A stretch of DNA of 64,000 nucleotides from contig JAVYRX010000001.1 in the NCBI GenBank assembly GCA_038729485.1, positions 44,890-108,889 on the forward strand. Direction: 5' to 3'. This DNA comes from Thermoplasmatales archaeon. Its GTDB lineage: Archaea; Thermoplasmatota; Thermoplasmata; Thermoplasmatales; GCA-001856825. Below the pieces are notes generated by a model. The model was not told where the DNA came from. It saw nothing but the letters and a program-made list of their open reading frames with translations, and did not search any database. The stretch's first letter is position 1; the number at the start of each line of letters is the position of its first letter. Positions 3,248 to 51,869 of the stretch are shown here, one piece after another. A program made the position numbers and the translations under genes.

Positions 3248-6200
3248 TTGGTGGAGTTGATGGATTCGGAAAGCAGGAAGGAAAGCCTTGTTGACATAAT
3301 AAGGGGAACGAGCACGGAGACAAAGACAGGTCTATTATTGACCTTGATCTTCTTCTTTTCCGTCTTTCTTAGCACGTTCTTCGTGATTGGCCCTGCCGTT
3401 AGGGCTGACTATGCAGTCTCTGGTGGTTCCGATGCTTATTACAACATGAGAATTGTTCAATACATCCTTTCTACCCATCATCAACTGCTTTTCGATGCGG
3501 GACTCAATTATCCTGTAGGCCTTGAAAATCCAAGACCTCCTTTCTTCATGTGGCTTGCAGTCATGCTAGGCTACGCCTTCTCCCCGTTTCTAGGGGGAGT
3601 CTATAGTTCAACTATGACTATGTTCCTTGAAAGCACCGCAATAGGCGGAGCAATGATAATATTTCCCACATATTTTATTGGGAAGGAGATATTTGACAGG
3701 AAAGTCGGGATAGTTGCATCGCTCCTGGTTGCGATGTCTCCTCTCACGCTGATGAAAAGCATAGCAACGATTGGACTTTTCGATATTTTCACGGCACTGT
3801 TCGGCGTGATGTTCATATATTATTTCTTAAGATCCGTTAACACATTCAAATACGAAGGCCAGGTTTCGTCCATTAGGGACGTGCTGACGGCCATAGGAAA
3901 GAACCCACTTTCTGTCACTTATTCCCTACTTGCTGCGGTTTCTTTGGCCGCATCGATGCTCACCTGGGTCGGATCAATCTCGCTCGTGTTGATTCTAGTT
4001 GGCGCGGCAGTCATACAATTGATAATATTTTCTCTCAAGAGGAAGAGCGCACTGCCCGTATTTGTTGCAAACCTTTTCTTCGGATTTGGATTTATAGTCG
4101 CATTTCCTTGGTATTATGTTGCGCATTTTATACCCGTTAGATTCGAATACCCTCTGATATTGTGGCTTGCACTTCTCGTTGTTTCCGTATATTTCATACT
4201 GCTTGAAAAGAGGCCTTGGCTTGTTTCTGTTGGTGCATTCGTTTTAATCGGCATACTGGCAGTAGCTGCACTTTACAAAGTTGATAAAAATCTAATATAC
4301 TCAATACTGTCGGGCCAGCACTATTTCATCAAAAACAAAATTTATGATACCATTGCAGAGGCTCAGGCTCTTCCCTTAGGGGAGGATATGATGGAATATG
4401 GGGCCATACCTTTCTTCGCTTCATTTATTGGATTGGCCTATCTTGTCTACCGCTGGATAAAGACTGCTACGTTCAACATGACCCTTGCACTCTTTTATTT
4501 CGGAGGCATAATAATAATAAGCATGATAGCTTCCAAATTCCTTTATTTCGGCGCCGTCGCAGCATCTGTTTTGACGGGGTACATATTGGTAAAATCTTTT
4601 GATTTGCTTCAATTCAAGCAGACTATTGAAAAGGCAAAGGGAAGGACCGTCAGGACGGCCCTGAGGAAGGAGTTCAAGTTCGCTCATTACGTTGCCATAC
4701 TCATAGTTGTGTTCCTTCTGGTTGTGCCAACAACGTTCTATGCCGTAGATTCTGCCATTCCTTACAACAATAAAACGGTATACGACAGGCAGCTGTACAA
4801 CGATACCCCTTCTTTCCTTAAACCTGCCAATTACACGAACAACTCCCTCTATTACCTTGGTGCGTTCGGACCAGATCTTGCCACTCCGAACCAGGCACTC
4901 AATACGTTCGAATCCTGGTTCCAGAACCAAGATACCCAGCTGCCTTTTAATCAGAGACCAGCGTTTATGTCGTGGTGGGACTATGGTTTCCAGACAATAG
5001 AACAAGGTGCACATCCAGTCATGGCAGATAACTTCCAAGATGGCATATATCCAGCAGCACAGATTTTGCTGGCCCAGAACGAGAGCCAGATCCTTGGAGT
5101 CATGATTGCCAGGATGCTGTACAATTTTTCATTAACTACCAGCTTTAACTCCTCAGGCATTAATCTTATCCTGAATCAATATCTCGGCAGCACTGGAGCA
5201 AGTACTGTAATCAATTATGAAATTAATCCCAGCAGATACATTTCTCAGATATATTCGGACCCATCCTTCTTCGGCAACTATGAAAAGGTCCAGGGCGGAG
5301 ATGCAATGTACATCTTGGTGGAGCATTACCTAGCAAACAAATATCCCCTTGGGACTTTGGTAAATCTCTATCAGGCGATAGAGCAGAAAATGAATCAGTA
5401 CATGGCATACATAGGCATAGATTCAGGCCTATTCCCATTCAATGGGACGAATACTGGAATATTTTATGCACCATCCTATCTTGGAGACTTCCCGTGGGTA
5501 AACGCCTCTGGCGAGATAATACCTGTTGCATTCTACAACATCACGGCAACTGATACATCTGGAAATACGTATCCACTGCAGGATTTTCCGCCAGGTGATA
5601 CGGCTGTCAGCTACAACATAAATTACACCCCGGCCTTCTATAATACCACAATATATCGCGGGCTAATAGGTTATCCACCCACCGCTGTAGGAGCTACATC
5701 AGGAATCCCCGGAATAAGTTCCAACCTCTCATCATATCCGACTATGCCGGGCTGGGGAATGCCCAATTTTGAACTCGTATACGATACCGTTCTATGGAAC
5801 CCTTATACTGATTACCAAAACCACACAACAGCGTGGCGGACGGTCAGCCTAGAGCAGGGATATTACTACCTTAAGAACCACGACGGCACCGTCGATCTGT
5901 ACCCGCCCGCACAGATTCTGGAAAACGAGGTCGTTGCCCTTGAATATTATCCAGGGGCAATCATTCAAGGAAGAGTGACTAATTCCCTAGGTCAACCGAT
6001 AGAAGGAATAAGGGTAACTCTAGATGATCAATACGGAATTCCTCACATGACTGTCCTTACGAATTCTTCCGGTTATTATTCCGTGTACGCCGTTGCCGGT
6101 AACGATACTGTTGTCTTTTCCACGGGGAAATACAACTCTTTGAGCATGGCGGGTAACAAAACATTGAGTACATTTAACGTTACTATATCCGAGGCACAGG

Positions 6201-9200
6201 CAAATAGGGAGAGCTACACCCCGTACGGACAACCTACCTGGAACATAACTCACAATCTTGTCCTCCCGTCAGATAGGGTAAACGGGGTCCTTTTCCTCAA
6301 TTTAGTCAATAGCAATGTTTACATTCCAAATACTGACGTTTCCATTTCAGGAATAGTAAAATACTATAATTCGACCTACGGGGCCCAATACATAACGAAC
6401 ACAACACAGAACGGAAGTTATGGCATATACAACCTGAAACCTTACAATTACAACGTTTCAGCATTTGTATTGGGTCAGTGGTACTATAATGTTACGTCCG
6501 TTACCATTTCCAATAATGCGACTTCCCTTGACGTCCCTATCCAGTTCGGGATTGTAAACGCCACTTTGGCAGTGGGAGCAACGCTTTCGCCAGGAAGCAC
6601 CATAACGTTCAGCAGGGGAAAATACAACATCTCATACAACCTTACTCAACCTAACCAGAGAATAAATCTACCTGTCGGTATTTTCAATGTTTCAGCCCAG
6701 AGCGGGGGAATGTGGGATAACTTTACTGTCCAGTTAACGTACAACACAACGACCAAGCTTGGGCTTGATTTCTCAAAATACTATACTGCCAATTTCCTCA
6801 CTTACGTCGGAAATACGCCTGTGAGCGCTTCTTTACAATTGATGGACAGCAGCGGAAAATACTTAAGCATCTTTAGCACGAATGGCTCTGGAAAGGCGAG
6901 CGTGGCTATATCCGTATATTCGGTTTATGCCTCTGCTTACTACGACGGAACTCATTATGCAGCTACGGGCATACTTAACGTCTCTGGAAATGAGAATTAT
7001 TCTCTCAATCTTGAACCTTCATATCTCGTTACTGGCACTTTCAGCGTCAATGGTATACCTCAGGATGGCTCTCAGCTTACGATAACGGGGAACAATACGC
7101 TACTAAATTACTACACCAGTTCTAGCGGTTACTTCTCAGTCTATCTTCCATACGGGCAATATACAGCAGTCGCTCAAACGACCGTTAACTCCAGTCTATA
7201 CGTTTCGATGCTTCAATTCACTGTTTCCGGAAGAAGCCTCAATCTTCCACTTAACGGAATGCCCGGTGCCAAAATAACGGGAAATGCAACATACGAAGGA
7301 TCCGGGATCGCTGGTCTTCTCACTACCACGGTTAACGGCAGGCCATATTACTACACTATGGTTAACAACGGAAGTTATGCCATTTATGTTCCAAAGGGAC
7401 TGTCCCCTAGCGGTCAGTCCTTCGTGTCTCCTGGATATGCAGTTACCTCTTCCAGCCTTTCGTCAATTTCCCTCAGACAGCTTAATGTAACTGTCAACGT
7501 TTTTGCTAATTACTCCGGGAACTATCTTATGACGTTGGAAGCTGTTGGTTCAAAGAGCTATTCTGTTAACGGTACGCATCAGTTTAATCTATCGCTGGCA
7601 CCTGGGACATACGAGATCTCCCTGGCAAGACCAGGTGCTGTAGTTTCAATTTCTAAAACTGTTATAAATGTCGAGCCTGGAATTGGCATCCAGACGTTCT
7701 CCGTAAATGCCACTCTAATTGCAGAATTGCAGGTTTTTGCTCAAAATGCGTTTGTATTCAGAAACTCAACGTTGGTATCTAACACGCTAAATTCCACATT
7801 GGAACTGGGCAATTACACCATTTACTCTTATTCTGGAAATCAAGCCTTCGTCGGTACCATCGATCTCAGGAAGAATCAGACTTTTGAACCTTCCCTTTCA
7901 TTAGGGTTTAACGTAAGCCTCCAATCAAATGTAACGATATCCGGCAAATTCGGAAGCATCACCTGGTCAGGGAACATAGTTCTTCCGAAGGGCAACTACA
8001 CCTTTACCCTTGAGAGAAGGGTAAACGAGACTTATGTGTATTATGCCTCTAGTACCATGTTCATATCTTCGCAGCAGAACATTGTTCTGAATACATCTCT
8101 GCGCATGTTGTCCTCCAATCTCTACGTAAATTCAAACGGCGCCTACGGCATATTTACGGTCATGGGGCCGAGAAATGAGACTGGAATCCTCGGAACGCCA
8201 ATTACTGTTCCATACGGCCAATATTCAATCTACGTCAGATCTGGGAATGAGGCGTACTTCGGAGACTTAAACGTCTCTTCGCCGTCCACATACCTAAACG
8301 TAACGCTTAAGAAAGCCTACCCCCTCAATTACGGTACTTATCTCAACAATACTTCTTATTCTGGTTTGATAAGGATTGGAACGAACTATTACATAAATCC
8401 GAAGGGCATCATATACCTGCCCAATGGTTCGTACCAGTTTTACGCAACCACTCAGTACGTTTACTACGGCTTCTCCGACAGATTTGTTCTTAACCAAACA
8501 GTGAACGTTTCTGGAATCAGTTCAGCCACGCTCACGTTCAAAATAGTGAAGGTCATAAGCGTATCCTTCTTCCCAGAAGCTGGATCTCCAACGCTTAAGG
8601 CAAACCAATCGTATACGTTCCCAATGCTGATAACAAGCGCATCCAACATTCCGCTGAATTTCTCTGTTGAAGGGACTTCCACGTTTAAAGTGTCAGGAAG
8701 CATATTGAACCTCCTCCCTTATTCCACGGGGATGATCAATGTTACAATTACGGTACCTAAAGGGGAACCGTCTGGATTAAATGCAGTGAATTTGAGGGCT
8801 TACTACGGGACGACTTACAGGGAGATAACAGTTAACGTGACTGTTCCAAAGATATACAACATAACTGCAAAGATAATAAACACAACTGGAAAGGTTGTTG
8901 GAAACACTATAGAGATTCCCCTGGTAATAAGGAACAATGGTAACACGAACACTGTGGTTAACGGCACCATCATAAATGACGCACAGCTCAAGGCGCTCGG
9001 AATGAATGTGACTTTCAACGGTTCAAAGACCTACAGCGGAACCTTATACTCATTCACAAATAATACAACTTACATCACCATTAACTCCTCACAGGGAAGC
9101 AAGATCTACGGAAGGCAGATACTCATATCCCTCTCCTACCAGAACGGCACCTTCATTCTGTCCACGACAATTCACGCTCCGTCCGTTTCAATCATGAAAG

Positions 9201-9334
9201 GCAAGGGCGAGGGTAAAGGACTTTCTCCGTATTCTCAGTCTGAGCAGCAGTATTACATATACGGGCTAACTGCATTCATCCTGGTTGCAATGGTCATTGC
9301 TATGGTTGCGTTTAGAAGGAGGCAGAGAACTTGA
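3248..9334 (+). CDS. aglB: Giant AglB/STT3-type oligosaccharyltransferase fused to sequon-rich beta-sandwich repeat region with C-terminal membrane anchor
   Basis: 2,028 aa. The N-terminal polytopic domain has a GGSDAYYNMR loop motif, and the catalytic WWDYG is encoded at 4973-4987. From about 5968 there are carboxypeptidase-regulatory-like repeats (GRVTNSLGQPIEGIRVTLDD...SSGYYSVY). C-terminal TM helix plus RRRQRT. The track start at 3248 is TTG, and an ATG at 3260 is an alternative start. Confidence 0.8.
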   Translation: MVELMDSESRKESLVDIIRGTSTETKTGLLLTLIFFFSVFLSTFFVIGPAVRADYAVSGGSDAYYNMRIVQYILSTHHQLLFDAGLNYPVGLENPRPPFFMWLAVMLGYAFSPFLGGVYSSTMTMFLESTAIGGAMIIFPTYFIGKEIFDRKVGIVASLLVAMSPLTLMKSIATIGLFDIFTALFGVMFIYYFLRSVNTFKYEGQVSSIRDVLTAIGKNPLSVTYSLLAAVSLAASMLTWVGSISLVLILVGAAVIQLIIFSLKRKSALPVFVANLFFGFGFIVAFPWYYVAHFIPVRFEYPLILWLALLVVSVYFILLEKRPWLVSVGAFVLIGILAVAALYKVDKNLIYSILSGQHYFIKNKIYDTIAEAQALPLGEDMMEYGAIPFFASFIGLAYLVYRWIKTATFNMTLALFYFGGIIIISMIASKFLYFGAVAASVLTGYILVKSFDLLQFKQTIEKAKGRTVRTALRKEFKFAHYVAILIVVFLLVVPTTFYAVDSAIPYNNKTVYDRQLYNDTPSFLKPANYTNNSLYYLGAFGPDLATPNQALNTFESWFQNQDTQLPFNQRPAFMSWWDYGFQTIEQGAHPVMADNFQDGIYPAAQILLAQNESQILGVMIARMLYNFSLTTSFNSSGINLILNQYLGSTGASTVINYEINPSRYISQIYSDPSFFGNYEKVQGGDAMYILVEHYLANKYPLGTLVNLYQAIEQKMNQYMAYIGIDSGLFPFNGTNTGIFYAPSYLGDFPWVNASGEIIPVAFYNITATDTSGNTYPLQDFPPGDTAVSYNINYTPAFYNTTIYRGLIGYPPTAVGATSGIPGISSNLSSYPTMPGWGMPNFELVYDTVLWNPYTDYQNHTTAWRTVSLEQGYYYLKNHDGTVDLYPPAQILENEVVALEYYPGAIIQGRVTNSLGQPIEGIRVTLDDQYGIPHMTVLTNSSGYYSVYAVAGNDTVVFSTGKYNSLSMAGNKTLSTFNVTISEAQANRESYTPYGQPTWNITHNLVLPSDRVNGVLFLNLVNSNVYIPNTDVSISGIVKYYNSTYGAQYITNTTQNGSYGIYNLKPYNYNVSAFVLGQWYYNVTSVTISNNATSLDVPIQFGIVNATLAVGATLSPGSTITFSRGKYNISYNLTQPNQRINLPVGIFNVSAQSGGMWDNFTVQLTYNTTTKLGLDFSKYYTANFLTYVGNTPVSASLQLMDSSGKYLSIFSTNGSGKASVAISVYSVYASAYYDGTHYAATGILNVSGNENYSLNLEPSYLVTGTFSVNGIPQDGSQLTITGNNTLLNYYTSSSGYFSVYLPYGQYTAVAQTTVNSSLYVSMLQFTVSGRSLNLPLNGMPGAKITGNATYEGSGIAGLLTTTVNGRPYYYTMVNNGSYAIYVPKGLSPSGQSFVSPGYAVTSSSLSSISLRQLNVTVNVFANYSGNYLMTLEAVGSKSYSVNGTHQFNLSLAPGTYEISLARPGAVVSISKTVINVEPGIGIQTFSVNATLIAELQVFAQNAFVFRNSTLVSNTLNSTLELGNYTIYSYSGNQAFVGTIDLRKNQTFEPSLSLGFNVSLQSNVTISGKFGSITWSGNIVLPKGNYTFTLERRVNETYVYYASSTMFISSQQNIVLNTSLRMLSSNLYVNSNGAYGIFTVMGPRNETGILGTPITVPYGQYSIYVRSGNEAYFGDLNVSSPSTYLNVTLKKAYPLNYGTYLNNTSYSGLIRIGTNYYINPKGIIYLPNGSYQFYATTQYVYYGFSDRFVLNQTVNVSGISSATLTFKIVKVISVSFFPEAGSPTLKANQSYTFPMLITSASNIPLNFSVEGTSTFKVSGSILNLLPYSTGMINVTITVPKGEPSGLNAVNLRAYYGTTYREITVNVTVPKIYNITAKIINTTGKVVGNTIEIPLVIRNNGNTNTVVNGTIINDAQLKALGMNVTFNGSKTYSGTLYSFTNNTTYITINSSQGSKIYGRQILISLSYQNGTFILSTTIHAPSVSIMKGKGEGKGLSPYSQSEQQYYIYGLTAFILVAMVIAMVAFRRRQRT

Positions 9335-10083
9335 AGGCAATCCTAGCACTGCTTCTCATAATCGCAGTTACCATTTTGTTCGTGCCGTCCTCTTCTGGAA
9401 ATGCTTCCGTTGGACCTGTAACAGTGGTCGGTCCATCTTCGGTAGCTGTAAATTCATCGTTCAACTATTCCGTTAACGTCCAGGAGATATTTACAAACTA
9501 TTCTGTGACTATGATAATGTCGGGATACAACCTCACAGGCGCTTCCCCGATATCACCAAGCTACGATAAGGATATTACGTCAGGACCGGCAGTTTTCACC
9601 ATTAAATCGCCTGCAACCCCAACGACGCTGTTTCTCTTCTTTCAGGTTGCTGCTGACCTGAGGGGAAAGCTGTATTACTACAACTTATCGTCAGTTGTGA
9701 AAGTCAATACTGTAACCGTCCTCACTGCGACGGTAAAGAATCCAACAGACTTTAACTTGACTGCAGTGAACGTCACCTTTAGCGTAAACGGGAAGTATGT
9801 GGGTAGCGATGTAGTCAATATATCTAAAAATTCGACAAAGAATGTCACTTATGAATGGATTTCCGGAAACCTTCCAACAGGCATATATACAGTAACCGTT
9901 GGGCTGAACAGCACTCTACTTCAGCTTGAGGGAGGAGGAAGTTACAGCTTCAGGGTTCAGGCTGGAAACCCGTTCGTTTCGTACATCTACATAGGCATTG
10001 CCGCATTCCTGATTATAATAGTAACAGTAATTCTAATATCCGGTTACTACGCGAGGAAGAGGAAGCCCAAGTGGAAGAAGTGA
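9331..10083 (+). CDS. Secreted, C-terminally anchored sequon-rich protein (putative surface glycoprotein)
   Basis: 250 aa. The TTG start overlaps the aglB TGA (cTTGAagg). N-terminal signal-like helix (MKAILALLLIIAVTILFVPSSSG). I count 12 N-x-S/T sequons. C-terminal TM plus ARKRKPKWKK. Confidence 0.6.
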   Translation: MKAILALLLIIAVTILFVPSSSGNASVGPVTVVGPSSVAVNSSFNYSVNVQEIFTNYSVTMIMSGYNLTGASPISPSYDKDITSGPAVFTIKSPATPTTLFLFFQVAADLRGKLYYYNLSSVVKVNTVTVLTATVKNPTDFNLTAVNVTFSVNGKYVGSDVVNISKNSTKNVTYEWISGNLPTGIYTVTVGLNSTLLQLEGGGSYSFRVQAGNPFVSYIYIGIAAFLIIIVTVILISGYYARKRKPKWKK

Positions 10084-10085
10084 AT

Positions 10086-10640
10086 TCAAAGTATGTGGTC
10101 GCTCAGAGCTATATTTACCGCTGATCTAGAGTCGTCCCCCCTCTTTGACGTCCTGGAGCTGCCCTTTTCATCGACGATTTGAAGATGAAATCCGTAAAGG
10201 CTCCTGATTATTTGATTCCTGTATCTCCTGTCGCCGTCACCTATCTTCACTATGAGATCTTTATGACTGCACTCATTGTTCACTCTCAGAACATAATTCC
10301 TTATTTCTCTGACGTCATAAATGCTTCTTCTGTCTATGACGATGTTATTTGCTAAAGTAGCAATACCGGGCATCGGACCAGGGTCTATGCCCACCACTAT
10401 CTCATGGCTATCGCCCGACTTGACCAGCTGCCTTATCCTGAATTCATCTAGTCCGTCTGTTTTGTAAACATTGCCCCCGCTTAAGTCCATGTCAGTCAAT
10501 ACAAGGTCAAAACTTGAATATCGGTCGCTCTCCCTCAGAGATACAAATGGCTGTCCGATGTTTTTCAACAGACACATCAGCCTGTTATATATCCTAAAGT
10601 CTTTTGTGAGGACGCCTACCTTCAATGCCTTCACATGCAA
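10086..10640 (-). CDS. Uncharacterised protein with RuvC/YqgF-like RNase H-fold motif (GIDPG) and short receiver-like N-terminus
   Basis: 184 aa. EIVVGIDPGPMPGIATL resembles the first strand/Asp motif of RuvC-like nucleases. The N-terminus (KVGVLTKDF...FDLVLTDMD) has a CheY-like beta-alpha pattern. No family assigned. Confidence 0.35.
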   Translation of the reverse strand: MHVKALKVGVLTKDFRIYNRLMCLLKNIGQPFVSLRESDRYSSFDLVLTDMDLSGGNVYKTDGLDEFRIRQLVKSGDSHEIVVGIDPGPMPGIATLANNIVIDRRSIYDVREIRNYVLRVNNECSHKDLIVKIGDGDRRYRNQIIRSLYGFHLQIVDEKGSSRTSKRGDDSRSAVNIALSDHIL

Positions 10641-31924: not shown

Positions 31925-33698
31925 ACCGTATCCCTGGCAGAGCTACATAATCGATCAGATAAAGAGAGACGACAGACAGAGCATCATGATAGATAGCCCA
32001 ACCGGTTCCGGAAAAACAGCCGCCGTCCTGTATGCAGTATCCACAAGATTCCCAGATAAAAAGATAGTTTTCCTCACAAGAACCAACTCGCAGGTTGAAA
32101 ATGTACTGAGGGAGGCCAGAAATCTTGGAATTGACAAAGTGATGACCTTTTTCGGAAGGGGGGAGATGTGTCTTTTTAGAACAGAAGCACCGGATATGAT
32201 CCAAGGAACGCCGGAAGAACAGAGCAATTACTGCAGGATCCTTGTTGAGAGAAATAGCAAGGGCCTTGGAGGATGCCCTTACAGAACTGACGGTCCGGAA
32301 GAATGGCCTGAAAATATCATGTCTCAACAATGTTTCCTGGAGCTTGGGCGGGATAGGATTTGCCCGTATTATGCCCAAAAAAATTTAGCCAGGGACGCAA
32401 CGGTGATAGCGACAAGTTATTCCTTTTTCCTGAATCCTTTTATAAGGAGCAGGTTCCTTAGCTGGATGGAAGCAGAATTAGACGATATCATCGTGATAGC
32501 TGATGAGGCGCATAATGTTCCAGATCTCACGAGGAATCTTATGTCCATGAAGCTAAGCCATGCCTCTATAAGCAACTGCAGAAAGGAGGTGGAGCAGTTT
32601 GGCGACTTTCAACTTAACAAGGTCAGCACTTCGTTCATCATGGACTCTCTTGAAGAGGCAATGGAGATTCTACTCGGCGAGGGGGACAGGATAATAACTC
32701 AGTCTGAGGTTAGCGAGGCCTACATGGAAGCATTCCAGATGAAATCAAACGATATAAAAAACCTCCTAAACCTCCTTGCCGGATATGGCCTATCGATACG
32801 CGAACAGAAGGAGAATGACGGAAAACTGCCTAGAAGTCACGTCTACAATACCGCCCTCCTGGCCCTAAGCATGATGGAGGGAGCAGAGGAATACAGTGTA
32901 ATAATATCCCATACGGAAGAGCCCTCATCCCTCGTGTTGACGAACCTTGAGACATACAAACTGCTGGACTTTTTCAGCAAATCATTCAGATCGTATTTCA
33001 TGTCTGGAACGCTAACTCCCTTTAGCAAATTCATTGACGAAGTTGGACTTCACAGTCCCGGGGAAATAACTGTCAGAGCCGATTATCTAGAGAGGAACCT
33101 GAAGGTATTTTTCGTAAGGGACGTAACCTCAAAGTTCACTATGAAGGACGAGGCTTTGGAGCGGATGAAATCGTACGTGAAGGATTTGGTGGAGAGAGTA
33201 CACAGGAACAAGATAATATTCTGCACTTCCTACGAACAGCTCAATTCCTTCCTTGAGCTGGAGATGAGGGGGAAGATCTATTTCGAGCGGAAGGGTATGG
33301 GAAACGAGGAGTTTCAACATCTCATTTCTGACTTCCGTTCGAAGGGAGGGAACCTCTTTGCAGTTATAAACGGCAGGCTTTCAGAAGGCATTGACCTTCC
33401 AGGAAAGCTGGTTGAGGTTGCAGTTGTCGCAGGAATACCGTACCCTCCGCCGTCGCCTGAAACATCTGCACTCGAGCTTTTCTTTGAAATGAAATTCAAG
33501 AGGGGCTGGGAATATGCATATGAAGCGGTAGCCTCCACAAGGATAAGGCAGGCAATTGGCAGAATCATAAGGGGTCCAACTGACAGGGGCGCAGCAGTGA
33601 TACTCGATTCGAGAGCTCGAAAATTCAAGGCGAGCCTCCCTAACCTATATTTGGCAGACGACGTTGTGGAAGAAGTAAACGCCTTCCTTGGTCAGTAG
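31896..33698 (+). CDS. xpd: XPD/Rad3-family 5'-3' DNA helicase (DEAD_2, FeS-cluster domain)
   Basis: DSPTGSGKT, LTRTNSQ, four Cys (MCLF...NYCRI...GGCPY...ICPYY), DEAHN, GRLSEGID, IGRIIRG. Collinear with T. acidophilum XPD as I recall it. Start is uncertain: track ATG 31806, or in-frame TTGs at 31872/31884/31896. I use 31896, just before FPYEPYPWQ. Confidence 0.85.
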   Translation: MRNVPRFPYEPYPWQSYIIDQIKRDDRQSIMIDSPTGSGKTAAVLYAVSTRFPDKKIVFLTRTNSQVENVLREARNLGIDKVMTFFGRGEMCLFRTEAPDMIQGTPEEQSNYCRILVERNSKGLGGCPYRTDGPEEWPENIMSQQCFLELGRDRICPYYAQKNLARDATVIATSYSFFLNPFIRSRFLSWMEAELDDIIVIADEAHNVPDLTRNLMSMKLSHASISNCRKEVEQFGDFQLNKVSTSFIMDSLEEAMEILLGEGDRIITQSEVSEAYMEAFQMKSNDIKNLLNLLAGYGLSIREQKENDGKLPRSHVYNTALLALSMMEGAEEYSVIISHTEEPSSLVLTNLETYKLLDFFSKSFRSYFMSGTLTPFSKFIDEVGLHSPGEITVRADYLERNLKVFFVRDVTSKFTMKDEALERMKSYVKDLVERVHRNKIIFCTSYEQLNSFLELEMRGKIYFERKGMGNEEFQHLISDFRSKGGNLFAVINGRLSEGIDLPGKLVEVAVVAGIPYPPPSPETSALELFFEMKFKRGWEYAYEAVASTRIRQAIGRIIRGPTDRGAAVILDSRARKFKASLPNLYLADDVVEEVNAFLGQ

Positions 33699-34237
33699 GG
33701 AACGCTTTTCACCTTCATCTTGTACCCGATTATATTTACCGCCCTGTGTATCAACGGCGTTACCACGAGTATAGAAATCGCCCCCTCCCATGTGAATATC
33801 CTTACAGACTCTGGGTAGAAGATCAGGTAAAAGAAGCCTAGAGCAAATAGGGCAAAAGGGTACTGATCCAGGAACAAGCTTTCAGAGCCTGGAGCCTTTC
33901 CTATCCTCCTCTTAATGAAGGAACCCGCCAGATCCCCGAACATGGAGAAAAAAGACAGCGTAGAGACCATTGGGAACGCCAACAAGAAATCGGCGGAAAA
34001 TGTAAGTTCTCTAATGCCAAGAAGGAGGAATAAATAATTGATGATGATGCCGGATAATATTCCAACTGCCGCCCCTCCAAGAAATCCCGACCAAGTCTTG
34101 TGATCGCCGAATATCCTCTTCCCCCTCCAGCTCTTGCCTCCGTCTATTACAAATCTTCCTCCCGTCAAGACGGCGCTTGGATTCGCTATGAAGGCAGGAA
34201 TGAACAGTACTAGAGACGTGATGAAGGAAGGAATCAT
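33692..34237 (-). CDS. carS: CDP-archaeol synthase
   Basis: 181 aa. GDHKTWSGFLGG, MFGDLAGSFIKRRIG and C-terminal KSVPY parallel A. fulgidus CarS (GDGKTWRGF, MFGDLCGSFIKRRFG, KEVPW). Confidence 0.85.
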   Translation of the reverse strand: MIPSFITSLVLFIPAFIANPSAVLTGGRFVIDGGKSWRGKRIFGDHKTWSGFLGGAAVGILSGIIINYLFLLLGIRELTFSADFLLAFPMVSTLSFFSMFGDLAGSFIKRRIGKAPGSESLFLDQYPFALFALGFFYLIFYPESVRIFTWEGAISILVVTPLIHRAVNIIGYKMKVKSVPY

Positions 34238-34278
34238 CGGAGCAAAGTTTCAGGAACAATATAACTGTTTCCGCAACC

Positions 34279-35850
34279 ATGGCTAAGGTTTTTCTATTCT
34301 CACCTATTCGGCCAAGGAAAATGGAAAGAGCCAAGCCAACTTGGATTCTGATTCAAAATCTCTACGGATTCATTATAGGATACGTCACGTACTTTATGAT
34401 ATTCAGACATGCTGGCGTCACGGCTTTCGGTATATTTTCATTTTCCCTTTCCTTTGGGCTTGTGTTCTCTTTCATTTCCGATTTGGGGATAAATACAGCC
34501 CATGTAAGAATGATAGCTGCTGGAAGGGATAGAAATGAATACAACAACGCTCTTCTATTCATCAAGTTCATCCTGACTGCAATATATGTTTCCGTGATTC
34601 TTCTGTCCGTTTTCGTTTGGACGAGCGTACTTCATCACGGATTTGAATCAAAGTACGAGTATCTTTCAATACTTGTCCTCATTCCGTATTTTGTCAGTCT
34701 GCCTTACGTTCAGGCGAACAGGGCATTTTTCACAGGTACGATGGAAGCAGCCAAAATGTCTCTTCCTGCTATAATTGAATCAACAGTAAGGCTAATTTCC
34801 ATACTTGTCTTCATAAGATTCAACGCATTCAGAATAGAGAATTTGCCGGAAATGGCCCTGCTCATAGCTCTATCTTATTCTCTATCGTATATAGCATATG
34901 CGATTTCAGGGTTTGCATTTGGGAGACCGTGGAACTTAAAGAGGCCTAAAAAAAGTACGATGAAGGAATATCTTAGGTATTCGTATCCTCTGATGGCCGT
35001 TGCGGTACTGGCTGCGATCGGAGCTAACATCGCACAGATTATTATCCAGTTTGCAGTCGGTTCATTCGATGTAGGGGGATATGCAGGGGATTTACGGATA
35101 ATAGCGATCGTAACGAGCCTCACGACATCTGTCACCGTCCTTATACTTCCCGTGCTTACATCACATTCAGGCAATAAGGAGGAGTACGGCAGAACGGTTG
35201 AACTGATGATGAAATATCTCGTAATTTTCGTGACGCCGATTACGGTATTTGCAATAATATTCGCATCACCTATACTGAACCTTTGGAGCAGTCAACTTAT
35301 ACCATTTTCCTTTTCTCTCAAAATCCTCCTTCTTGGGTCTTGGTTCTCCACGGTATCCATACCATTCTGGACGCACTTCAACGCAACGGGAGAAACGAAG
35401 ATATCCGGCGGTCTGAATATAATTTCTTACCTAGTCGTCATAATACTGGACGTTGTCCTTATCCCAAAATTGCTCTTCGGCGTTAGATTCCTGGGTTATG
35501 GAGTGAGTGGTGCAGCTTACGCGTCCCTTGCTTCCGGGATTGTCCTCCTGGCGAGTTCCTTTGCGATGCTCAAAGGAAGAATTAAGATAAGGATTCCTTT
35601 CGAAGTGATTAAGGGTATTCTAATATCGATCCTTATGGGAGTGCCGTTTTACCTTGGATTTGGGCAAAGGGTCAGAATGCCATCGTATGACCTTCTCGCC
35701 CTCTTTATAGCGTATGCTCTTGTATACATCCTATTCCTAGTCATATTCCGTGCACTTTCGAGAGAAGAAGTGATGAGCATAATATCCATGATCGACCCAA
35801 GGAGCATAATAAGATACGCCAAGGAAGAGCTAAGGAAACCGTCTCAGTAG
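34279..35850 (+). CDS. MOP-superfamily oligosaccharide/polysaccharide flippase (Wzx/AglR-like)
   Basis: 523 aa, about 12-14 TM helices with flippase-like N-terminal organisation. No catalytic motifs. Confidence 0.65.
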   Translation: MAKVFLFSPIRPRKMERAKPTWILIQNLYGFIIGYVTYFMIFRHAGVTAFGIFSFSLSFGLVFSFISDLGINTAHVRMIAAGRDRNEYNNALLFIKFILTAIYVSVILLSVFVWTSVLHHGFESKYEYLSILVLIPYFVSLPYVQANRAFFTGTMEAAKMSLPAIIESTVRLISILVFIRFNAFRIENLPEMALLIALSYSLSYIAYAISGFAFGRPWNLKRPKKSTMKEYLRYSYPLMAVAVLAAIGANIAQIIIQFAVGSFDVGGYAGDLRIIAIVTSLTTSVTVLILPVLTSHSGNKEEYGRTVELMMKYLVIFVTPITVFAIIFASPILNLWSSQLIPFSFSLKILLLGSWFSTVSIPFWTHFNATGETKISGGLNIISYLVVIILDVVLIPKLLFGVRFLGYGVSGAAYASLASGIVLLASSFAMLKGRIKIRIPFEVIKGILISILMGVPFYLGFGQRVRMPSYDLLALFIAYALVYILFLVIFRALSREEVMSIISMIDPRSIIRYAKEELRKPSQ

Positions 35851-49444: not shown

Positions 49445-50140
49445 TCATTGAAACAGTTCAGATTTAGACAACACTGCTATGCCCTTGGGCCCGATGCTGT
49501 AGGGTCTTGCCTTCCTGTCGTGGTTCATCATTCTCATCTTCAATACCCTCATGATGCTTGTAGTCGTGCCGACGTTGTCGTCGTATCTATTAAGGAGGGA
49601 GATTACGCCATCTGACACAAATTCTGCGAGCCCTTCCCTGCTGGAATAAGGTATAGACAAATTGGATTCAGCAAGCAGCAGCGACGTGACTCCTGTGTCC
49701 CTGAGTGCATTTGAAAGATTCATAATTATATTCCTCTTCATCGCTTCGCCATCAGCAACCAGCAGGAGAAGGGAGATGCTGTCTATTATAACTCTCTTTG
49801 GCTTCATTGCGGCCAAATTAGCACGAAAATTATCTCCATTTTTCAACATTTCAACAAATTCCAGGACGTCGGGGTTTATCAGATATATCTTACTGCCTAG
49901 ATAGGGTGAAAAATCTAGGCCATAAGAGATAGAAGCTGCCACGATACTTTCCTTTCGCTCCTCCAGGGTAAAATATGCAACTACGTCGCCCTTTACCGCG
50001 CCCCTATGTGCGAAGTGTATACCGAGTGTTGTTTTCCCAGCCCCGTAGCTACCAAGAACTAAGACAGACGATCCCTCTGGAATACCCCCTCCCAACATGT
50101 CATTCAATCCATCGATTCCTGTGTCTATAAGATTCATCAC
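49445..50140 (-). CDS. KaiC/RecA-superfamily ATPase (single KaiC-like domain)
   Basis: 231 aa. GGIPEGSSVLVLGSYGAGKTTLG (Walker A), TLEE, RVIIDSIS (Walker B). Confidence 0.75.
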   Translation of the reverse strand: MMNLIDTGIDGLNDMLGGGIPEGSSVLVLGSYGAGKTTLGIHFAHRGAVKGDVVAYFTLEERKESIVAASISYGLDFSPYLGSKIYLINPDVLEFVEMLKNGDNFRANLAAMKPKRVIIDSISLLLLVADGEAMKRNIIMNLSNALRDTGVTSLLLAESNLSIPYSSREGLAEFVSDGVISLLNRYDDNVGTTTSIMRVLKMRMMNHDRKARPYSIGPKGIAVLSKSELFQ

Positions 50141-50940
50141 CTCACCTTCATCGTATTTAGAACGACCATGCCAGATGCATATTCAAATTCCGTGTCGAAT
50201 CTTTCTATCTTTTCCGCTTCTATCATCGGAAGGACCCCGATGAACCTTGGTATTGTCATGAACCTCTTTCTTCTGCTTGTTCTTTCAGATGCCCCCCACT
50301 CAAACAGCATAGTTCCATCGAATATTTCCATAAGAATGTTCTCAGACCTTCTTTCTACTATTCCTGAAGTCATGAGAACGTATATAACGGAATTCCACAT
50401 CTTTGCCGCTCTGGACAGACCCCTCGCAAGATCAAATATTGTGTTTTCGTCAGAGTACTTGCTCGTCAGCAAATCCGTCAATGAATCTACTATTATCAAC
50501 CTGTCCCTTCCTACCTTTTCTATATCCCTGATAAATGTCGAAACGAGATTCTCTCTGTCTCTCAAAGTCGAATACTCCCCAACCCAAGAAAGCGGTACTT
50601 GGGTCTGCTGATAAAAAAGTCTGGAATAATCAAGGACATTTATCGTACTTATCAGGTCTGATGCAAGCCTATTTTCTAGCGAAAGAGATATAATTCTAAA
50701 TACTTCTTTCTTTGGCTTCGAAAATGATACATATACTATCCCTCCCAGTATTTTCACCTCGAAACCATCAAGCTCTCTGAATGCTTTCCCCCTCAAGGCC
50801 TGAGAAAGGTTAGCTGCAGAACTAAGGCAAAATTCCAGATTGCCTGCTCCAGGCTGACCCAAAAGAAGCACCGAACTCCCTTCTGGGACTCCGCCTTTTG
50901 AAATCGTATCGAATGATGGTACGAATGTTGGAACCCTCAT
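50137..50940 (-). CDS. KaiC-like protein with degenerate Walker A (likely non-catalytic partner)
   Basis: 267 aa. GGVPEGSSVLLLGQPGAGNLEF: the P-loop Lys-Thr is replaced by Asn-Leu (codons at 50836-50859). Walker-B-like RLIIVDSLTD is retained. 4-nt overlaps on both sides. Confidence 0.6.
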   Translation of the reverse strand: MRVPTFVPSFDTISKGGVPEGSSVLLLGQPGAGNLEFCLSSAANLSQALRGKAFRELDGFEVKILGGIVYVSFSKPKKEVFRIISLSLENRLASDLISTINVLDYSRLFYQQTQVPLSWVGEYSTLRDRENLVSTFIRDIEKVGRDRLIIVDSLTDLLTSKYSDENTIFDLARGLSRAAKMWNSVIYVLMTSGIVERRSENILMEIFDGTMLFEWGASERTSRRKRFMTIPRFIGVLPMIEAEKIERFDTEFEYASGMVVLNTMKVR

Positions 50941-51869
50941 CCTCGGGCACCCTCAATTGTCTTCTTAACCGCTTCCGTACTCTCCCACCTATACCTCCAG
51001 CCGTTGTTAAGTGCTTTTGTTATGTCCAAGCTCATCTTCTTAACGTCCCCTATCCAGCCGGCACCACCAGGGCCACCTACGAATTTTATCCGAGCCTGAG
51101 GAGAAAACTTTCTCACTGTCATTTCCGCAATCTCTGAAACCGATGTTTGTCCCTTAGTACCTAGGTTAAACAGCCCGTCTGCCTTTCCATGTAGGTATAC
51201 CATCCCTGCCACGCAGTCGTCTACATAAATGTATGACTTCGTTTGAGTTCCATCTCCAAGGACTTCTAGTTCATCTTTATTTTTCTTCAATTTTTCTATA
51301 AAATCGAAAATGGCACCGTGAGTTCCTCTCTTTCCAACTACATTCGCAAATCTAAACACCGATGACTTAAAGCCGTAGTTACTAGAAAAGCTGAATATAA
51401 AGGCCTCTGCCGCCAACTTTGATGCCCCATAGTGTGATATTGGCTTCAACGGTCCATAAGATTCCGGAGTCGGGAGCAAATCAGCATTTCCATAAACAGA
51501 ACTTGTTGATGAAAATACTAACTCTCCTACATCGCTTTCCCTCATAGCCTGCAGCAAAATCTTGGTGGCGTATGCGTTCTCCTGGAAATCAACTTCTGGA
51601 TTGCCATATCCTCTCCTCACATCTGCATTAGCGCTTAAATGGAATACCACATCCACGTCTTTCATAGTTTTCTTTAGCATTTCTTTGTCCTTTACGTCGA
51701 CTCTTTCCAGTCTGAAGCTCTTGTTTCCAAGAAATTCATTTACGTTTTCCTCTTTACCATTTGAAAAATTATCTACGCCTATCACGTAATTATCCTTCAA
51801 CAAGAACTCAACAAGATTAGATCCTATAAAGCCCGCTGCGCCTGTGACAATTATTCTCTTATTTTTCAC
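50937..51869 (-). CDS. NAD-dependent sugar-nucleotide epimerase/dehydratase (GalE-like SDR)
   Basis: 310 aa. IIVTGAAGFIGSNLV, YGASKLAAE (YxxxK). Confidence 0.85.
   Translation of the reverse strand: MKNKRIIVTGAAGFIGSNLVEFLLKDNYVIGVDNFSNGKEENVNEFLGNKSFRLERVDVKDKEMLKKTMKDVDVVFHLSANADVRRGYGNPEVDFQENAYATKILLQAMRESDVGELVFSSTSSVYGNADLLPTPESYGPLKPISHYGASKLAAEAFIFSFSSNYGFKSSVFRFANVVGKRGTHGAIFDFIEKLKKNKDELEVLGDGTQTKSYIYVDDCVAGMVYLHGKADGLFNLGTKGQTSVSEIAEMTVRKFSPQARIKFVGGPGGAGWIGDVKKMSLDITKALNNGWRYRWESTEAVKKTIEGARG

Follow-up and report, generated by a model that had tools for sequence, protein, structure and literature searches.

Why would the oligosaccharyltransferase (OST) of an archaeon continue for more than a thousand residues beyond the end of its enzyme? 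The question is raised by the aglB gene in a 64,000-nucleotide stretch of a Thermoplasmatales genome (contig JAVYRX010000001.1, positions 44,890 to 108,889 of the forward strand; hereafter, the window). To our knowledge, all AglB proteins studied so far biochemically or structurally are single-subunit enzymes of roughly 600 to 1,000 amino acids (aa). An original prediction, made from the letters alone, described here a single open reading frame (ORF) of 2,028 codons in which an AglB domain is joined to a chain of beta-rich repeats with its own C-terminal anchor, and it supposed a host of the Thermoplasmata type. The ORF and all of the quoted motifs lie where they had been placed, and the source is indeed a Thermoplasmatales archaeon. 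The fusion is one conserved polypeptide, made of a bona fide AglB, a long extracellular beta-sandwich chain (hereafter, the arm), and a C-terminal anchor. This giant, doubly anchored form is the standard AglB across the phylum Thermoplasmatota, an undescribed variant of a known enzyme. New here is a conserved partner gene that overlaps the AglB stop codon (Table 1).

Table 1. Coordinates of the giant AglB gene, its parts, and the partner gene within the window
Feature	Coordinates	Strand	Details	Basis
Giant AglB gene	3248..9334	+	2,028 codons from TTG 3248; stop TGA 9332-9334	ORF listing
Polytopic STT3/AglB membrane domain	3248..4762	+	aa 1-505; 13 transmembrane helices	Pfam STT3, AfAglB matches, AlphaFold2 helices, Foldseek
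Extracellular catalytic and peripheral AglB domain	4763..5953	+	aa 506-902; WWDYG, invariant sequon N611-E-S	
First beta-sandwich, CarboxypepD_reg-like	5954..6247	+	aa 903-1000	Pfam PF13620, conservation, pLDDT
About 12 further beta-sandwich units	6248..9172	+	aa 1001-1975; sequon-rich	AlphaFold2, hhalign, Foldseek
14th transmembrane helix, RRRQRT tail, and stop	9236..9334	+	Helix at aa ~1997-2022	Predicted helix, hydropathy
Partner gene, 250-aa type I membrane protein	9331..10083	+	Directly downstream in 65/65 evaluable loci	

The enzyme core and the extracellular arm

The product of the ORF has 2,024 to 2,028 aa, depending on the start codon. TTG at 3248 gives the maximal ORF, GTG at 3251 is the start of the NCBI model (2,027 aa), and a third candidate is ATG at 3260. 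Homologues begin at a methionine equivalent to the latter, with GGTGGAG just upstream of it, and the true product is probably the 2,024-aa form. The protein is identical to NCBI protein P0001, from a Thermoplasmatales archaeon metagenome-assembled genome (MAG; 2,027 aa). Its mass is 223 kDa, it lacks cysteine, and just 3.4% of the ectodomain residues are acidic. The motifs that had drawn attention to it are GGSDAYYNMR at aa 59, WWDYG at aa 576 (nucleotides 4973 to 4987), GRVTNSLGQ... at aa 908 (nucleotide 5969), recurring G-x-Y cores at aa 1055, 1293, 1374, and 1657, IEIPLVIRNNGNT at aa 1888, and RRRQRT at the C terminus.

The first 902 residues constitute a complete AglB-L-type enzyme, with 13 transmembrane (TM) helices, the aspartate of external loop 1 (EL1), the TIxE motif of external loop 5 (EL5), and WWDYG. 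Pfam STT3 matches aa 61 to 305 with 38.5 bits (cut-off, 24.5), and AglB-L of Archaeoglobus fulgidus (AfAglB; PDB 3WAJ and 5GMY) is found both by phmmer (E = 1e-12) and by the family profile (E = 1e-20). An AlphaFold2 model of aa 1 to 1060, with a predicted local distance difference test score (pLDDT) of 72.8, contains the 13 TM helices. Its best PDB match in Foldseek is AfAglB again (7E9S; E = 3e-23; template modeling score, TMt, 0.62), followed by human STT3A/B, yeast Stt3, and PglB. The alignment to 7E9S spans most of the 867-residue AfAglB chain, which places the end of the canonical AglB-L portion near aa 900.

Invariance, here and below, refers to an alignment of 29 full-length homologous sequences, which also served to follow the turnover of sequons (N-x-S/T, where x is not proline). 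The EL1 aspartate, D62 in GGSDAYY, is invariant and aligns with D47 of AfAglB (GGNDPWY). Equally invariant are T368-I369-A370-E371 of EL5, aligned with the TIAE of AfAglB, and WWDYG at aa 576 to 580, which is present in 293 of the 294 homologues retrieved. By sequence or fold, four of the six features that characterize the AglB/STT3 family were found: the GT-C domain, the EL1 aspartate, TIxE, and WWDxG. AfAglB has AENES at the position of the invariant sequon N611-E-S, which is therefore a general AglB feature.

AfAglB is the best match by both sequence and structure, sharing the GT-C fold, the 13 helices, the three motifs (EL1 Asp, EL5 TIxE, and WWDYG), and the A(E/Q)NES sequon that follows the WWDYG helix. 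However, it ends after its peripheral beta units, at about 870 residues, whereas the window AglB adds 1,126 aa with 13 beta-sandwiches and a 14th helix (TM14). The window AglB also differs in its obligate downstream partner gene, in a DxH motif that is down to a single aspartate, and in a DK motif that was not located. The NCBIfam profile TIGR04154 (archaeo_STT3, the OST associated with the archaeosortase A system) scores 183.7 bits over aa 30 to 619, below its cut-off of 450; the window AglB is thus a relative of this subfamily and not a member. An archaeosortase-type sorting signal was rejected on the same score, and no PGF or PEF motif precedes the C-terminal TM helix.

The arm begins with a domain that is conserved like the enzyme. 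Pfam CarboxypepD_reg (PF13620) scores 40.4 bits (cut-off, 32.3) over two stretches, the better being aa 906 to 966, which bears out the carboxypeptidase-regulatory-like signature of the original prediction. Identity to distant homologues is 49% over aa 903 to 1000, versus 33 to 46% for the catalytic core, and D927, Y929, I931, P932, and H933 are invariant (a D-x-Y-x-I-P-H motif). The pLDDT is 84 to 92 over aa 901 to 960 and 67 to 88 onward to aa 1000. The model predicts order in the junction at aa 895 to 910, a short and highly conserved stretch; the core is joined to the first beta-sandwich without a flexible linker. Because this sandwich is conserved like the core and follows an ordered, conserved junction, it can be considered part of the enzyme, where it may add one more peripheral unit to the catalytic domain.

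Over aa 1100 to 2000, identity is 19 to 24%, and aa 1000 to 2000 are nearly free of indels. This remaining part of the arm looks like a fixed-length, surface-exposed scaffold rather than a variable-copy repeat adhesin. The AlphaFold2 model of aa 881 to 2028 (mean pLDDT, 77.2) is all-beta, with about 100 strands and a terminal helix at aa ~1997 to 2027, and about 13 sandwiches of about 82 aa can be counted from the strand pattern, that is, from secondary structure alone. In agreement with the predicted repeats of some 80 aa, these units are homologous when compared by hhalign in 100-aa tiles (probability up to 98.7%, E = 3e-16), with register shifts of about 80 and about 136 aa. The tile-wise comparison was needed, as a hidden Markov model (HMM) built from the first extension domain alone did not recover the later units (E of at least 0.24). 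The terminal helix and its basic RRRQRT tail are also as predicted. From the positive-inside rule and the topology of AfAglB, the arm would lie wholly outside the cell, tethered to the membrane at both ends, with RRRQRT in the cytoplasm. The extension by itself amounts to 122 kDa before glycans.

A CARDB-like stretch near the C terminus was supported in part. The last two units (aa ~1788 to 1974) are weakly CARDB-like, by an NxGN motif in which N1896, G1898, and N1899 are invariant and by a profile match to the downstream partner only; Pfam CARDB (PF07705) has no match in AglB at E ≤ 1. Nor does the extension contain a catalytic Pfam domain, the catalytic families annotated in homologues (STT3 and PMT_2) belonging to the N-terminal transferase region. 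A hidden enzymatic or carbohydrate-binding domain was rejected, as Pfam and NCBIfam searches with the query and the precomputed Pfam annotations of homologues gave only beta-sandwich families in the extension.

Foldseek matches to the arm model were limited to multi-domain beta-sandwich chains (macroglobulin [MG] domains, Bacillus anthracis TIE, and pilins) at low TM-scores, and appear to reflect domain type rather than assembly. Chief among them are the MG chains of alpha-2-macroglobulin and complement, likewise long strings of beta-sandwiches, with more than 1,000 aligned columns (E = 1e-9 to 1e-8) at TM-scores of 0.06 to 0.1: the domain type matches, but the assembly does not. Family searches with the window AglB turned up neither a thioester nor a bait region nor a CUB domain. 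NOMO, a subunit of the BOS complex, and B. anthracis TIE (BaTIE) are also rods of about a dozen CarboxypepD_reg/immunoglobulin (Ig)-like beta-sandwiches. BaTIE (6FWV) was matched to the arm by Foldseek (E = 2e-9), and NOMO2 (9C7V) gave a weak whole-sequence profile match (E = 1.2e-5) in which no single stretch passes the threshold. NOMO, too, has a TM anchor at its C terminus, but this type I protein stands alone in the eukaryotic endoplasmic reticulum and carries no enzyme, and its likeness to the arm is one of domain type only. The arm may work as these rods do, a comparison with which we make no claim of homology. Archaeal surface-layer (S-layer) and other surface glycoproteins (COG1361/CARDB, Sulfolobus SlaA/SlaB) are likewise extracellular, beta-rich, anchored, densely sequon-bearing proteins of acidophiles. 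Unlike them, the arm of the window AglB is fused to an enzyme and anchored at both ends; it falls outside Pfam CARDB, and nothing found here suggests that it forms a lattice.

A widespread giant form and its partner gene

Among 5.8 billion proteins searched, 37 homologues cover 93 to 100% of the query, with lengths of 2,022 to 2,114 aa and identities from 100% down to 29%; all 37 come from Thermoplasmata MAGs. A HMMER search with aa 1 to 900 alone gave a similar picture, most of the 150 nearest 50%-identity cluster representatives being 2,000 to 2,700 aa long. We also surveyed GTDB with one genome per species, which yielded 585 confirmed relatives, and examined the best 78 loci. Complete ORFs in these loci are 2,026 to 2,265 aa long except for two (L022, 1,589 aa; L068, 1,442 aa), and the long ones have WWDYG near aa 570 to 606 and end in a TM helix with a basic tail. 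A C-terminal hydrophobic anchor is present in 231 of the 238 retrieved homologues of at least 1,900 aa.

The giant form is carried by I-plasma, Thermoplasma, Cuniculiplasma, Ferroplasma, and Aciduliprofundum/DHVE2. Cultured carriers are Thermoplasma volcanium GSS1 (TVG1271204, 2,076 aa), Oxyplasma meridianum (2,113 aa), Caldiplasma sukawensis (2,093 aa), and Cuniculiplasma SKW3 (2,111 aa), and longer versions of 2,500 to 3,200 aa occur in Poseidoniales (3,174 aa) and Methanomassiliicoccaceae (2,544 aa). The closest named relative is I-plasma, at 60% identity; the window gene encodes the orthologous AglB of a Thermoplasmatales archaeon related to it. Uniqueness to this genome was therefore rejected, the giant form being widespread in Thermoplasmatota.

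A shorter form of about 1,430 aa occurs in Acidiplasma and at locus L068. The C-terminal anchor is retained both at L068 (ORF 4871-9199, which keeps the partner) and in P0293 (Acidiplasma sp., 1,425 aa), and such forms offer a natural truncation series for the function of the arm. One MAG (SRP271791_co2_51) has an AglB N terminus on each of two contigs (loci L008 and L011), 57% and 69% identical to the query, which is either bin contamination, strain mixing, or a second copy.

Whether the architecture was already catalogued had been left open. It is present in databases, in T. volcanium since the genome was deposited, under inconsistent names (STT3 domain-containing, glycosyltransferase family 39, carboxypeptidase regulatory-like, hypothetical, and AglB). 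Full-text literature searches and reviews gave no description of the giant architecture or of the partner, although an earlier mention elsewhere is possible.

Directly downstream of aglB, and in a strictly conserved overlapping pair with it, lies the partner gene. Its TTG start overlaps the AglB TGA (TTGA), and AGGAGG occurs within the arginine codons of the AglB tail (AGA AGG AGG; 9313-9333), about 10 nucleotides upstream of the TTG. This Shine-Dalgarno-like sequence and the overlap suggest translational coupling. The predicted protein opens with a signal or TM segment, continues in Ig/CARDB-like beta domains, and closes with a TM helix and the tail KRKPKWKK. It bears 12 sequons, and its score against Pfam CARDB is 22.5 bits, just under the cut-off of 22.7. 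Using tblastn, we found the partner immediately downstream in 52 loci. By ORF criteria, it is present at all 65 evaluable loci, defined as those with a complete AglB and at least 900 nucleotides downstream, and in each of them it is hydrophobic at both ends and has a basic tail, which contains PKW in 58. Database homologues are all annotated as "hypothetical protein" and lack Pfam domains. The partner profile aligns with aa 1853 to 2028 of AglB (probability, 93.6%; E = 2e-7), while a pairwise BLASTP against the AglB C terminus is not significant (E = 0.69). Its C-terminal domain and anchor thus appear, at the profile level, to resemble those of AglB itself.

A third syntenic gene is a convergent ORF of 184 aa (10086-10640, minus strand), which contains VVGIDPGPMPGIA and has no Pfam, NCBIfam, or PDB sequence match. 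It was found in 56 of the 78 related loci, about 1.3 to 1.8 kb past the AglB stop in 53 and about 9.6 kb past it in the other three. The major facilitator superfamily and aldo-keto reductase genes upstream were rejected as a conserved unit, for among the related loci they adjoin aglB only in L004 and lie elsewhere in L026 and L051.

Sequons and the role of the arm

The window AglB has 74 sequons, 5 upstream of WWDYG and 69 downstream of it, in line with the roughly 70 counted by eye. Residues 901 to 2028 hold 59, against 23.4 ± 4.0 in composition-preserving shuffles, or about 9 standard deviations (SD) over expectation, so that the strong enrichment claimed for the predicted outside is upheld. 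The excess recurs in all 29 aligned sequences (37 to 62 observed versus 14 to 33 expected). The counts are thus kept up, yet sequon positions turn over: sequons occur at 363 alignment columns in one or more sequences, at 36 columns in half of the sequences or more, and at only 3 (N611, N952, and N1041) in all 29.

How exceptional is this density? At 5.2 sequons per 100 aa, the arm stands far above the median of 0.44 in the non-membrane ORFs and polytopic proteins of the window and related loci. The partner has 4.8 per 100 aa here (median across homologues, 3.4), and a few other exported ORFs, taken from the flanks of related loci, have 2.9 to 3.9. The arm is thus some 12 times denser than the non-membrane ORFs but merely at the top of the range of 2.9 to 4.9 for exported proteins. 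Two window ORFs with N-terminal hydrophobic segments, considered as secreted comparators, turned out to be Rossmann-fold enzymes and were discarded. Many window ORFs without TM segments have fewer sequons than their own shuffles predict, and the contrast between compartments is sharp, with 3 to 5 per 100 aa in exported domains versus the median of 0.44 in ORFs without TM segments. Arm density also varies by lineage, from about 5.3 per 100 aa in acidophilic Thermoplasmatales to 2.6 in Poseidoniales and 1.2 to 2.5 in other deep branches; the short Acidiplasma form has 8.1 in an arm of about 530 aa. Because other exported proteins share the density and because it varies by lineage, sequon saturation is best regarded as a general trait of acidophile exported domains. 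The predicted glycans look like a shield laid over a scaffold of fixed length, not like the reason for the fusion.

On balance, we think it probable, though by no means assured, that this is a giant general OST whose arm and partner form a fixed-size extracellular scaffold of the holoenzyme, densely glycosylated in acidophiles. AglB would be the general N-glycosylating OST of the cell, and probably the sole one, since a comparative study lists one AglB entry for each genome of the acid mine drainage plasmas in its supplement (Yelton et al. 2013). The fused arm, TM14, and the partner would together make up the scaffold. AglB itself, acting in cis or in trans, would in acidophiles attach N-glycans densely to the outer domains of the arm, and these glycans would shield the arm and add to the glycoprotein coat as an overlay. 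Several points weigh against this proposal. Of the second acidic motif (DxD/DxE/DxH), a single aspartate remains, D179 in GLFDIFT, which is kept in at least 90% of sequences and for which the two alignments to AfAglB give different counterparts, D161 in one and H163 in the other. No DxxK of a DK/MI motif is recognizable in the consensus of aa 620 to 720, a region that the sequence alignments with AfAglB, stopping at about aa 620, do not reach. AglB activity is therefore assumed from the remaining motifs and from conservation. The geometry between domains in the model of aa 881 to 2028 is unreliable (predicted TM-score, 0.43), the set of exported comparators is small, and the TM helix and composition may account for some of the score in the profile match between partner and AglB. 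What we say of glycosylation, of a complex with the partner, and of the function of the arm is inference.

Several other explanations for the extension can be weighed against the scaffold. The arm, the C-terminal TM helix, and the partner might do the job of the noncatalytic subunits of eukaryotic OST, stabilizing STT3, handling the nascent substrate or lipid-linked glycan, and perhaps docking to the Sec translocon or the ribosome via PKW(K/R), with arm glycosylation being incidental. There is a case to be made for this: the partner is strictly conserved, apparently coupled in translation, and equipped with a conserved cytoplasmic motif; the arm keeps to a fixed length and opens with a domain no less conserved than the active site; lineages with few sequons retain the architecture; and the topology puts TM14 where it could pack against the STT3 membrane domain. 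Eukaryotic OST (STT3, ribophorin I/II, and OST48/Wbp1) likewise sets a catalytic STT3, itself N-glycosylated, amid beta-rich extracytoplasmic domains, each anchored at its C terminus by one TM helix and ending in a short, basic tail in the cytoplasm. However, in the window AglB, the beta-rich part is fused in cis and joined by one small partner. No structural or sequence match links it to ribophorin I/II, OST48, or another OST subunit: no accessory subunit was among the PDB Foldseek or profile matches, although the STT3 chains of the OST complexes in the library are matched. The matches of the arm are generic, and the fast divergence of aa 1100 to 2000 would be odd for a surface that handles substrates. 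We therefore regard this analogy as possible but rather unlikely, and any resemblance to eukaryotic OST would be convergent. A bolder version, in which Thermoplasmatota independently evolved a composite OST, with the arm looped back via TM14 and the obligate partner taking the role of ribophorin and OST48, or in which the long-known major membrane glycoprotein of Thermoplasma is the arm itself, released or exposed, strikes us as less likely still. Under it, the PKW(K/R) tail of the partner would contact a cytoplasmic or translocon component.

The original prediction saw in the extension what looks like a hyper-glycosylated glycocalyx module, possibly the substrate of the enzyme, and held this plausible for a wall-less cell of the Thermoplasmata type. 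In its full form, the reading has the module stand in for a cell wall and supply AglB with its main substrate. For a putatively glycosylated arm the idea, self-glycosylation included, is plausible in itself, and it draws on the sequon excess of about 9 SD, present in all homologues, on the acid-adapted composition, and on the view that wall-less Thermoplasmatales rely on a glycocalyx or membrane glycoproteins (PMC4243693). Moreover, STT3 of Picrophilus torridus (PTO0786) was detected in all three culture-supernatant proteomes (PMC8345856), the only expression evidence that we found. Yet the link to wall-less cells is weakened and was not supported in the form given. The same giant, doubly anchored form occurs in Aciduliprofundum/DHVE2, and S-layer genes are predicted in Aciduliprofundum boonei (PMC3750248); it also occurs in neutral-pH lineages and in marine Poseidoniales and Methanomassiliicoccaceae, where the density is 2 to 4 times lower (1.2 to 2.6 per 100 aa). 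In addition, the partner and other exported proteins are similarly rich in sequons, a coat protein needs no catalytic domain in each copy, and the first domain is conserved like the enzyme. As the reason for the fusion, a coat therefore seems improbable to us. Least likely of all is that the giant ORF is an artefact or a precursor always cleaved near aa 900 into an ordinary AglB and an anchored surface glycoprotein of about 122 kDa. AglB was flagged as "split" in E-plasma and Fer2 (Yelton et al. 2013), locus L022 stops early, and the 122 kDa of the extension before glycans are in the range of the 152-kDa major membrane glycoprotein that Yang and Haug are said to have described in Thermoplasma acidophilum in 1979. 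Their paper is among the references of PMC2952790. However, the "split" flag concerns these two early drafts only, and the uninterrupted ORF in more than 60 independent assemblies, complete genomes included, excludes an assembly or frameshift artefact; orthologues show no consistent split near nucleotide 5950. As for cleavage, the short junction, with its high conservation and predicted order, is unlike a linker.

Other genes of the window and significance

About 25 kb from aglB, a gene for CDP-archaeol synthase (minus strand) adjoins one for a Polysacc_synt/Wzx-type flippase (plus strand; 523 aa, 11 TM helices) at 33692-35850. The latter is a candidate AglR-like flippase for the lipid-linked glycan. 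Farther on, at 49445-51869 (minus strand), two adjacent genes for KaiC-family ATPases are followed by one for an NAD-dependent sugar epimerase/dehydratase. The strongest negative GC skew of the window (-0.26, at 50 to 52 kb) falls in this KaiC region.

An entire archaeal phylum, which takes in the marine Poseidoniales, abundant worldwide, and cultured members such as Thermoplasma, Cuniculiplasma, and Oxyplasma, thus uses a doubly anchored AglB of 2,000 to 3,200 aa, encoded next to a partner gene that is strictly conserved. If arm and partner both belong functionally to the enzyme, the N-glycosylation machinery of archaea is more varied than the single-subunit textbook view, and Thermoplasmatota would offer a tractable case of OST complexity evolving in parallel to the eukaryotic complex. 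Should the composite OST prove true, multi-component OSTs would for the first time extend beyond eukaryotes and Asgard archaea. If, instead, the arm is mainly a glycan-shielded coat, it would give the glycocalyx of wall-less acidophiles, so far poorly defined, a concrete component. Under either reading, the AglB-partner pair is a specific and testable target.

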